Shown: in pieces, positions 2,310-5,300 of the stretch | Layout of the letters: each line of letters starts with the position of its first letter | Numbering within the stretch: position 1 is the first letter of the stretch | DNA from: Girardia tigrina | Lineage: Eukaryota | DNA length: 56,911 nt | Assembly (NCBI GenBank): GCA_001938485.1 | Contig: MQRK01254936.1 | Span: 1-56,911 of the forward strand | Reading direction: 5' to 3' | Position numbers and translations under genes: made by a program | Notes under the pieces: generated by a model | The model's input: the letters and a program-made list of their open reading frames with translations, nothing else | Told to the model about the DNA's origin: nothing | Databases searched by the model: none

Positions 2310-5300
2310 GGGCCTCCCATCTCTGTAATGGTATTGAGCCTATGGCTCTTTAGAGGGTCCACCCAAACTAAAGTCCTAAATGGCCCCCCGATAGTTCTCC
2401 TACGGGGTCAGTGGCCTTCCGCCTTTGAGCAATCGGCTTGCCAGTAATGAACGACCACCCATGGAATTTGGTACCATGGCCGTACATGCCGTTGGCTGTT
2501 ACGGTGGACGCGTAACAACCGCGAAATGGGCACTTAAATTGTCCTCTTGCAGTCTTGTAATCGGCTGGCAGTCGGTATTGTAGGTGCGTCTCTTCGGCAT
2601 CGTTGTTCGGCTGTATCCTCGGCATACTCACAGTTTCCTCCGGCAACTGAGGATTGGAATGGTTTGATGCCGGCTCTTCCTCGTTCTCTTCTTCCAAGTT
2701 TTCTCTCTGGGCGTTGGATTTTGGCGCTTCTTGATGATTCTTCTGAATATGAATACTTAGGAAACCAGCGGCCTTGTATTCCGTCGGACAGTGTTGACAT
2801 TGATATTTTCCTTTCTTCTGACGTGGCTGGGCTTTCTTCTCTCTCTTCTTCCGCGGGATTGACCCTGCTCCTTCGTGATCTCTTCTAAGATGCCTGTTTA
2901 ACTCCTTCACTTCCGCATATTGTTTGTGACAGGCATCCATCGGGCAGCTATGTTATTTCAAACGAGGTAGCACCAGTCTTAATGTTTGCTCGTCCCCGCT
3001 TCTTTGGATTCTCTTCAGTCGGAATACTTTCTCGATCTTTCCATCCATCTTCAGTAAGTTTTCCTGCAGAACGTCTCTTTTTAATTCACTGAAACTGTAC
3101 TCGGCTCCAAAGAGCCAGTGAGCATCCACTCTGAGACATTCTACTAGATGTTGCTTTCTCCGACCGCTAATCTTCTTTCCTCCAATGAGTTCGCATCCAC
3201 TGATCTGCTTGACGTTCTCCGACCATTCTCCTAAATCGACCTTGGTATTGTGTACGATTCTTCTCCGTGCGATGATATCCATTGGGCTTTGCAGTCCAAT
3301 TGATAAGCTTTCGAAATCCACAAAGTTCGCCGAGTACATAGATTGTGAAATGCTTTTAACTTTTTCACGTGTACTTCATTTGTCCTCAAATTTTCACAGC
3401 TGTCGTAAACCACCGGGAATACACAGCTGCTAATTATGCTGTCCTTATTCCTGAGAGACAAATTGTTGTGCTTCAACATTGGTCTGATCGTCCGTAATTT
3501 CGCTGCTCCTTTCTGAATTCTGGCTTTAATGTCCGTACCTGAGCTTCCTCCACTTTCAATTATCGAACTCAGGTAGCAGAATTTGTCCACCCATTCTATT
3601 TCGGCATTCAGCTCGTCTCTTGCCGCAATGTACTGAATCCATCGAGATTCAGGATCTTTGTTTTCCCAATGTTGATTTTGAGCCCCATATTCAAGAACAC
3701 AGTGTTGAGACACGTGAGATTTCGTTCGATATTTCCATAGTCTTCATCCAGTAAGCACAGGTCGTCTGCATAAGCAAGTCTGTTCACGGTCAGCTCTTCC
3801 CCATTGTATTTTAGCTTCACACCACCTGGTAGTCCTTCTTTGATCACGGTCTTAATTGCATGATCAAAGACAAGGTTGAATAGTAAAGTACCCAATACGC
3901 AACCCTGACGGACTCCTTTGTCCATACTGAATTTATCCTTTCCAATGCTTCCCGTGAAACCTTCATGAAATTTCATGATGATACTTAGCATCCGATTCTG
4001 TATTCCAATTCCTTGAAGGCAATCCCAGAGAACTTTCCTGGGTACGCTGTCGAATGCCTTTTCAAGGTCGATAAAAATAGCAAATACATTTATGTTCCGG
4101 TATCTGGACTCTTCTTGTATCTTTCGTAAGATACCAATCGCGTGCGCTGTGCTTCTGTTTGGTCTGAAACCAAATTGCCAGTCGTCCAGTATCCTTTCGA
4201 GATGTGGCAGTAATCTATTTGCAATGATTCGGGCCATGACCTTTCCTCCTACATCAAGTAGGAATATGCCTCTATAATTATTCAATTCCTTCTTGGAACC
4301 CTTTCTTTTGTATAGAACCACGACTTTCGCCGTTTTCCAAGCCTCCGGGAATTCTGCTCTTTCCTCCAATATGTCCACGAAACATTGCTGTATCTTCTCA
4401 GTCAACTGGAGACCGCCCCATTTATATAGCTCTGGAATGATACCGTTGTTTCCAGCAGCTGTACCGTTCTTTAGTTGTCCAATAGCGGTACCTACTTCTT
4501 CTACGTCCGGTGAGTGGTCTATTTCAAGTGCTCTATTCGATTTCCACGAGATAGTCTCTTTCGTTTTTTCTGAATAGATGTGAGAAATGTTCTGCTAACA
4601 CTTCGTCCTTCACACTGCTTTGTACAGTACAGAGAGAGGATTCCTTCGTTTCACTATTGCATAGGACTCTAAGCTCCGTGTATAACTCAGAAGTCTTGCC
4701 CATACATTCTCTGTTGAGAATTCCTTCTATTTCTTGTCCAATTCCCTCAATCCTCTCTCTTTTCCATTTCCTTAGATGCCGCAAGGTGTTCAGTCTTGCA
4801 GCCTTCCACGTCAAATATGTTATTTCACATCTATTCTGAATGTATTCTTTCCTTCGCTTCCATTTCTCCTGCAGTAGTGGTTTCAGCTCTTCTAGGTGTC
4901 CCTGTAGCCACCTCTGATTGAGCGGCACTTTTTTCTTTCTGCATCTTTCTGAGGTCTTCAAAATGACCTTCTCCACATCATCCTAGCTCTAGACATTCGA
5001 ACAAGCCTGTCCTATGTCACTACTGGTGGCCACTTTGTTGTTCTGCAAGGAGAATCTGTCAATTCTTCCTTTTCTTTTATTTCTTCTATCATTCGCCAAC
5101 TTGAGTACCTTATTGTTGTTTGTGATCCATATCGTTAACACGACTAAGTCGTGGTCAGAGCCGCAGTCAAAATTCGGGTAGCTTTTGACATTGCTTATCC
5201 TGTTGCATCTGCTCTTTTGCGACAGGAATAAGTCTAGTAGTAGTCTTTTTCTCGTTGCCGGGTGTGTCCATCTAGTTCTCTGCGCCAACTTATATTTGTA

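Follow-up and report, generated by a model that had tools for sequence, protein, structure and literature searches.

The locus described here raises the question of what zinc fingers do at the C-terminus of a retrotransposon that has inserted into another mobile element. In the window, a 56,911-nt stretch of Girardia tigrina DNA (contig MQRK01254936.1, assembly GCA_001938485.1), minus-strand positions 2368-2952 code for three C2H2 fingers (F1, F2, and F3), in a frame shared with the APE-RT thumb region upstream. The LINE copy that contains them lies within the GIY-YIG nuclease sequence of a Penelope element, and a second, related copy is found in a second Penelope family (Table 1). The initial annotation had proposed that the fingers are a target-recognition module, and that F3 with its basic tail may read the Penelope target or bind the 3' UTR RNA.

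Table 1. Coordinates of the two LINE copies, their fingers, and the Penelope targets in the window
Feature	Positions	Strand	Remarks
LINE copy, subfamily A, 5'-truncated, decayed	2310..5614	-	partial APE, RT, thumb, three fingers, short tail-less 3' UTR
F1, CPMDAC-x12-H-x4-H	2875..2946	-	helix positions 2/3/6 = K/E/R
Linker 1, basic in subfamilies A and A2, unconserved in B	2812..2856	-	
F2, CQHC-x12-H-x4-H	2734..2799	-	G-aromatic-L helix: GFL in A/A2, GWL in most of the clade
F3, CPFRGC-x12-H-x4-H	2461..2532	-	Gly at helix position 3; followed by WSFxTGKP hairpin and basic tail
Conserved 3' terminal ~105 nt, common to subfamilies	2310..2415	-	overlaps last 12 codons
3' copy of 11-bp target duplication	2299..2309	-	within YIGE codons of Penelope GIY-YIG
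5' copy of target duplication, Penelope GIY-YIG sequence	5615..5639	-	GTG 14 bp before insertion point
Subfamily B copy, 5'-truncated inside F1	11780..12400	-	F2 12236-12301; damaged F3 11939-12010
3' target duplication of B copy, second Penelope family	11769..11779	-	5' copy 12401-12411; GTG 13 bp upstream
Empty Penelope target, first type	51845..51869	-	
Empty Penelope target, second type	16418..16442	+	

In the subfamily A copy, Pfam detects RVT_1 (E 2.5e-31) and Exo_endo_phos_2 (E 8.5e-8), and zf-C2H2 with an E-value of 0.0018, short of the curated cut-off. The spacing of all three fingers follows C-x2-4-C-x12-H-x3-5-H, and the AlphaFold model of the intact relative P0001 contains the strands plus helix of a beta-beta-alpha fold, each finger being folded separately (pLDDT about 70-81) between linkers that are of low confidence or disordered; fingers predicted to fold one by one, with disordered linkers between them, were likewise obtained for a distant relative of P0001. 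The presence of three spaced C2H2 fingers after the RT is confirmed by spacing, by the shared frame, by AlphaFold, and by the intact relatives. With variable, low-confidence linkers of ~22 and ~65 residues, they do not form a classical tandem array of the Zif268/TFIIIA kind, which has TGEKP linkers. The linkers had been described as basic or low-complexity, which holds for the basic linker 1 but not for linker 2, which is acidic (net -9). The fingers belong neither to a Penelope protein nor to a host gene, since they continue the reading frame of the LINE RT and lie between target duplications. A stop codon just before F1 (2953-2955) is private to this copy: it is absent from intact relatives such as P0001, and position 2955 carries a different base in four of four public runs. 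Some long apparent open frames in the genome sequence were discarded as runs of N. Elsewhere in the window there is a Tc1/mariner-type DDE fragment (269-1120, minus strand; Pfam DDE_3), and the ORF list points to further Tc1/mariner-type fragments or decayed LTR-element protease/RT/RNase H/integrase-like frames at 24858-27280 (plus strand), 30509-31000, and 36016-36402.

Both LINE copies are inserted at the same base of Penelope GIY-YIG sequences, and their 11-bp duplications match the local Penelope variant. The second copy had been taken as a guide to finger conservation, having apparently kept F2 and a well-conserved F3. F2 is indeed present, but F3 is damaged, since its last His is replaced by Tyr; moreover, this copy is a member of subfamily B merely truncated inside F1, full-length B copies have all three fingers, and between A and B F1 is as conserved (17/27 residues identical) as F3 (16/27).

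Exact genome-wide counts give at least 3,369 3' ends of this RTE-like LINE lineage, and intact database proteins of subfamilies A (P0001, 1145 aa), A2 (P0002, 1169 aa), and B (P0138, 1188 aa) carry the same three fingers at the C-terminus. Among the 120 RT relatives listed, at least two C-terminal fingers are present in 23, one in 47, and none in 50. In a FastTree phylogeny of 112 RT segments, 19 multi-finger proteins and four early-ending proteins form one clade with a support of 1.0, and two other multi-finger proteins fall outside it; the position of P0004 reflects a slicing error and is disregarded. Clade member P0013, which has three fingers, is filed under the name of a bacterial symbiont and is probably host DNA in a metagenome bin. 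F1 and F2 are found in 22 of 22 clade proteins, and each finger is recognizable as itself throughout the clade. A canonical F3 occurs in 12 and a variant one in two; the remaining eight, two of them possibly cut short, have none. The Gly at F3 position 3 is shared with the single finger of ordinary RTE-like relatives. ESM Atlas returned generic C2H2 clusters only, Foldseek returned the expected matches L1 ORF2p and R2, and for the flanks of distant relatives a metagenome scan gave generic RTs and a prokaryote scan gave none. A PF20049 search and a family-K pattern were without matches, negatives that carry no information.

We apply the RTE label on the strength of architecture and sequence motifs, because the RT tree is without a named RTE reference and without an outgroup; the neighbors of the lineage in it are unnamed proteins with RTE-like tail motifs. 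As in RTEs, intact elements have one ORF of 1145-1188 aa with APE followed by RT, and 5' ends lie less than ~250 nt before the APE start; the term "ORF2" used initially is therefore loose, the full-length copies looking single-ORF. The 3' short tandem repeats of RTEs are lacking in A, A2, and B, whose 3' ends are sharp and tail-less; a short T tail is present in family G, which is 39% identical to A. The Tn-TA signature of RTEs is present only in its TA half, the upstream motif being GTG followed by an A-rich run. The lineage is an RTE-like LINE variant distinguished by its split target and by two defined insertion hot spots, and it may be a deep, apparently unnamed RTE branch. The literature searched, in its accessible parts and apart from Repbase and subscription papers, whose target tables could already list the lineage or site, holds no description of a target-specific or multi-finger RTE, of Penelope as a target, or of the 28S site sequence given below.

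Target duplications were callable for 32 of 232 ends, most copies running into contig ends or N. Subtraction of two on-target sites, one Penelope-like site, and two whose flank starts without A left 27 dispersed pre-insertion sites. GTG is present in 21 of the 27, at -14 in 19 and at -15 in two, against a background rate of 0.0089 per position (binomial p 5e-32), and it is distributed over the subfamilies as 3/5 in A, 7/7 in A2, 7/8 in B, and 4/7 in others. All 27 sites have T at -1, 20 have C at +2, and there is an A-rich run from -9 to -7. Duplication lengths are fairly uniform, at 8-15 bp by exact match. In family G, GTG lies 13-15 bp upstream in six of seven duplications, scored by eye and in a register made somewhat doubtful by the T tail. 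A finger-less RTE-like family of the same genome, for which 61 ends were examined and 12 duplications called (two of them doubtful), has T^A in 10/12 and GTG in 0/12, and the difference in GTG presence from the finger-bearing dispersed sites is significant (Fisher p 5e-6). Its duplications are 9-13 bp long and it has a (GAA)n tail. This finger-less family (L343-L368, L425-L484) is high-copy, and no clear T run was seen upstream in the 12 sites.

A second defined target, identified via full-length copies, is a stretch of conserved 28S rDNA in the region of Rfam LSU position 2816, where the insertion point reads T^AC and GTG is again at -14. Both this site and the Penelope site fit the GTG plus T^A motif, and of 22 positions compared, the majority sequence of the dispersed sites shares 15 with the 28S site and 13 with the Penelope site. 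A2-like, D-like, and G families, all finger-bearing, form tandem arrays at the 28S site with an 11-bp duplication between units. All matches to the site in the assembly, 19/19 downstream and 23/23 upstream, are junctions, and no empty site is present. Ten A-type 3' ends are followed by the 28S duplication. Full-length copies have weak HDV-like ribozyme matches at their 5' ends, where they would be expected (Rfam E 0.23-0.28, below the cut-off). The ribozyme hits, the tail-less end, and the presence of several divergent families at 28S hint that the lineage may have occupied rDNA first. Within 28S, the insertion point of Anopheles RT elements (R1 clade) presumably lies farther downstream than that of R1Bm and may coincide with, or be close to, the present site.

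Several autonomous families and short non-coding elements share the one 28S site (L345 on contig C255124, L344/L366 on C239083, L342, L361, and L370-L398), a shared-site community resembling R1/R2 arrays. The arrays also hold short elements that give no protein match; those in L380-L397, of ~100-310 bp and with several distinct 3' ends, are probably SINE-like partners. An HDV-like fold was seen at L345:1180-1264, L348:1210-1290, and the L353 5' end, the first bases resembling the end of the 28S duplication. In L342 (about 1000-1320, minus strand), a (TTTAG)n run is joined to 28S sequence, which we take to be near the R2 site, upstream of an A2-like copy; the 5' junction of that copy lacks several hundred bases of 28S.

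The per-finger comparison of substitution rates that the initial annotation had proposed was carried out, and it indicates constraint on all fingers, with F1 rather than F3 the most conserved. Between A and A2, F1 is identical at 27/27 residues with no replacement change, at a pS of 0.66 (66% of synonymous sites differ); identity is 18/25 in F2, 24/27 in F3, 11/15 in the tail, and 32/56 in linker 2. The selection claimed for F3 and its tail is upheld, with a pN of 0.06 versus a pS of 0.52 for F3 and a pN of 0.13 versus a pS of 0.68 for the tail. The RT row of this rate table is unreliable, as copies were cross-mapped. Between A and B, where synonymous sites are saturated, 8/25 residues are identical in F2, 4/18 in linker 1, and 11/56 in linker 2. 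On the identities among A, A2, and B and the comparison with pS, all three fingers are under purifying selection and conserved as protein, F1 the most. Mean divergence is 0.4% in A2, the youngest group, and 1.1% and 2.1% in the others. Conservation of F3 as a by-product of RNA constraint or of 3' end swapping was ruled out, since synonymous sites are 52-71% different. Such constraint or swapping would account for the conservation of the last 12 codons, which have zero synonymous change between A and A2, and the ~105-nt 3' end is probably an RNA recognition element.

We see an even chance that F1 anchors on GTG while the APE domain nicks T^A, the fingers being the conserved C-terminal module of a lineage whose insertions obey the split target. 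The APE domain would nick at T^A as in the finger-less relative, the finger module would hold the upstream duplex, and F1, perhaps with F2, would read GTG at -14 to -12; for F3 and the basic tail, a grip on RNA or on the DNA backbone would be more likely than base reading. F1 is the candidate reader because it alone keeps its base-contact positions across the motif-sharing subfamilies: no other finger has identical residues at helix positions 2, 3, and 6 in all three subfamilies, and across the 22 clade proteins Arg6 is present in 22/22 and Glu3 in 18/22. In the zinc-finger code, Arg6 and Glu3 read G-(T/C). The best solved look-alikes of F1 are the fingers of Zif268/EGR1 and KLF4, although the matches are weak (E 0.05-0.1). 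A motif 14 bp from the nick, with a slack of 1 bp either way, would suit a tethered reader; the isolated R1Bm endonuclease reads only about 5 bases, according to the accessible part of PMC1919474. Against F1 as the reader, it has no Arg at position -1, the residue used by canonical GNG readers, and Gly replaces the position 3 residue in one 28S-array family. Single fingers on long flexible linkers are usually weak binders. All of the support for GTG reading by F1 is correlative, drawn from sequence comparison.

Plant RTEs are not known to carry fingers. Ordinary RTEs already have a split signature, a T stretch about 10 nt upstream of TA, with no domain assigned to it in the accessible parts of PMC6007223 and PMC13295347, so a surface of the RTE core could have shifted its preference to GTG. 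In the main alternative, which we hold tentatively, GTG would be read by the core (APE, RT, or thumb), and the task of the fingers and basic stretches would be to bind the 3' RNA of the element itself or to serve as a nucleic-acid chaperone. Such split signatures occur across RTEs; the two C-terminal C2H2 fingers and basic patches of L1Tc prefer RNA and single strands (PMC2805920, accessible part), R2 ZnF3 touches 3' UTR RNA (PMC12180492, accessible part), and the strongly conserved tail-less 3' end needs a specific reader. However, GTG is unlike Tn-TA in both sequence and position and is absent from the finger-less RTE of the genome, and F1 has kept typical base-contact residues over deep divergence. 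An RNA-binding role is also at odds with the lack of conservation of basic linker 1 between A and B, and with the predicted fold of the ~105-nt 3' end, in which none of 29 pairs is compensatory.

Penelope targeting is real but graded among the subfamilies. By exact genome-wide counts, 2,542 of the 3,369 3' ends are followed by AC and 614 by the 11-bp Penelope duplication, and 2,594 empty Penelope sites match the exact 23-mer in the whole genome. Hand counts over the first 100 flanks listed, of 679 matches for A and 1,053 for B and with a few duplicate contigs included, place 66/100 A ends at a Penelope-type site (56 in Penelope and 10 at the same duplication with a different insert beyond it) and 29/100 B ends (23 and 6, respectively); among the first 100 flanks listed for a mixed third 3' end type the figure is 13/100, and for A2 it is 1/40, from copies on long contigs that were chosen without knowledge of their flanks. 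These listed-order counts and blind picks were preferred over other script-derived fractions for A and B, which are biased toward deliberately fetched dispersed copies; Fisher tests computed from those fractions share the bias and were set aside. By these counts most copies occupy one site in A but not in B or A2, and in family G 6/26 ends are at the 28S duplication; the specificity would be of a relaxed, two-site kind. Several dispersed flanks, among them those that begin with ACTAAACAAAC and ACTGCAATAAA, recur in unrelated contigs, which suggests that there are other repeated targets or that duplication occurred later.

Because A2, with an identical F1 and near-identical F2 and F3, has so few copies at Penelope, the fingers do not account for the Penelope preference. 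In part, then, the same array does occur in a non-specific relative, the finding that the initial annotation had named as counting against a targeting role. The simple GTG/T^A motif is estimated to occur 0.3 to 2.6 million times in the genome, an abundance that explains the low Penelope share of A2 but not the shares of A and B, which need extra recognition near or downstream of the nick. The source of this additional Penelope preference in A and B probably lies elsewhere than in the fingers, in APE differences or 3' read-through pairing. Read-through priming was considered as a source of target bias and gave no clear sign, dispersed flanks losing information after +2.

A role of F3 and its tail as readers of the Penelope target that give the element its Penelope specificity is accordingly improbable, even though both are under purifying selection and A, the most Penelope-biased subfamily, has Asn at F3 helix position 2 (TANGMYG in 35/48 copies) where A2 has Lys (TAKGMYG in 16/16): Lys is also found at this position in B, A and B use the same site despite differing at F3 positions 2, 5, and 6, F3 is missing from over a third of the clade proteins, the same fingers are present in the 28S arrays, and the APE also differs between A and A2, at 40/215 residues. 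Equally hard to credit is a mostly sequence-independent clamp on upstream DNA that sets the second nick and 5' junction rather than the site, for which one may cite the uniform duplications and A-clade R2, where the main effect of losing ZnF3-2 is a less precise 5' junction and two of the three fingers contact the backbone (PMC12180492, accessible part), but which leaves the GTG motif unexplained and faces similar duplications in the finger-less RTE. The target-recognition proposal likely survives in altered form, as F1 with the upstream GTG, for which the support is correlative, and not as F3 with Penelope.

Comparison with known systems, as described in the accessible parts of the papers cited, places these features in context. 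Bov-B and plant RTEs (PMC6007223, PMC13295347) share the single APE-RT protein, the TA-step nick, and a second motif about one helical turn upstream; theirs is a T run near -10 rather than GTG at -14, they have no finger or one instead of three at the C-terminus, and the main subfamilies here differ further in lacking a repeat tail and in their strong enrichment at two defined repeats. The R1 clade (R1Bm and relatives) is likewise APE-type and in 28S rDNA, with short target duplications and tandem arrays, but has two ORFs, a specificity mapped to the endonuclease (PMC1919474), and, in R1Bm, a different site. A-clade R2 also has three fingers, with roles divided between upstream target DNA and 3' RNA, a 28S target, and a 5' HDV-like ribozyme, where the hits here are weak and the finger roles inferred; it differs from the present elements in its restriction-like nuclease, in the N-terminal position of its fingers, which are accompanied by Myb, in its use of another 28S site, and in being almost absolutely specific (PMC12180492). 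L1Tc/Ingi proteins similarly have C2H2 fingers and basic patches after APE-RT, the likeness being drawn at the level of architecture, but they belong to another clade and are a demonstrated RNA-preferring chaperone (PMC2805920). Xenopus Tx1L, which inserts into the Tx1D transposon, is also an APE element aimed at another mobile element (PMC1919474); it belongs to another clade and has two ORFs, whereas here the target is Penelope, its nuclease motif is destroyed, and targeting is partial.

The remote half of the RTE split signature is without an assigned domain, and the accessible parts of PMC6007223 and PMC13295347 on this signature make no mention of zinc fingers. The lineage amounts to a natural experiment on it: the remote motif has changed, a finger module has been added, and sister subfamilies with almost identical fingers differ widely in their use of one site (66% versus about 2%), so that domain swaps could address the question directly. 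RTE proteins are under development as gene-insertion tools, with dispersed integration (PMC13708176, accessible part); in that setting, a small one-ORF member whose conserved 28S site is natural and whose reader may be separable would be of interest. According to PMC13295347, Tx1 and R1 are the only APE clades with site-specific LINEs. We suggest, tentatively, that a finger module gained by a deep RTE lineage may have turned a loose split signature into a GTG-anchored one fitted to the 28S site, which would make this a third APE clade with site-specific members, and that subfamilies later spread to a similar site in the Penelope nuclease gene, where one of them now has two-thirds of its copies, disabling a rival. 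The insertions into Penelope GIY-YIG sequences document one retroelement repeatedly breaking the nuclease of another.
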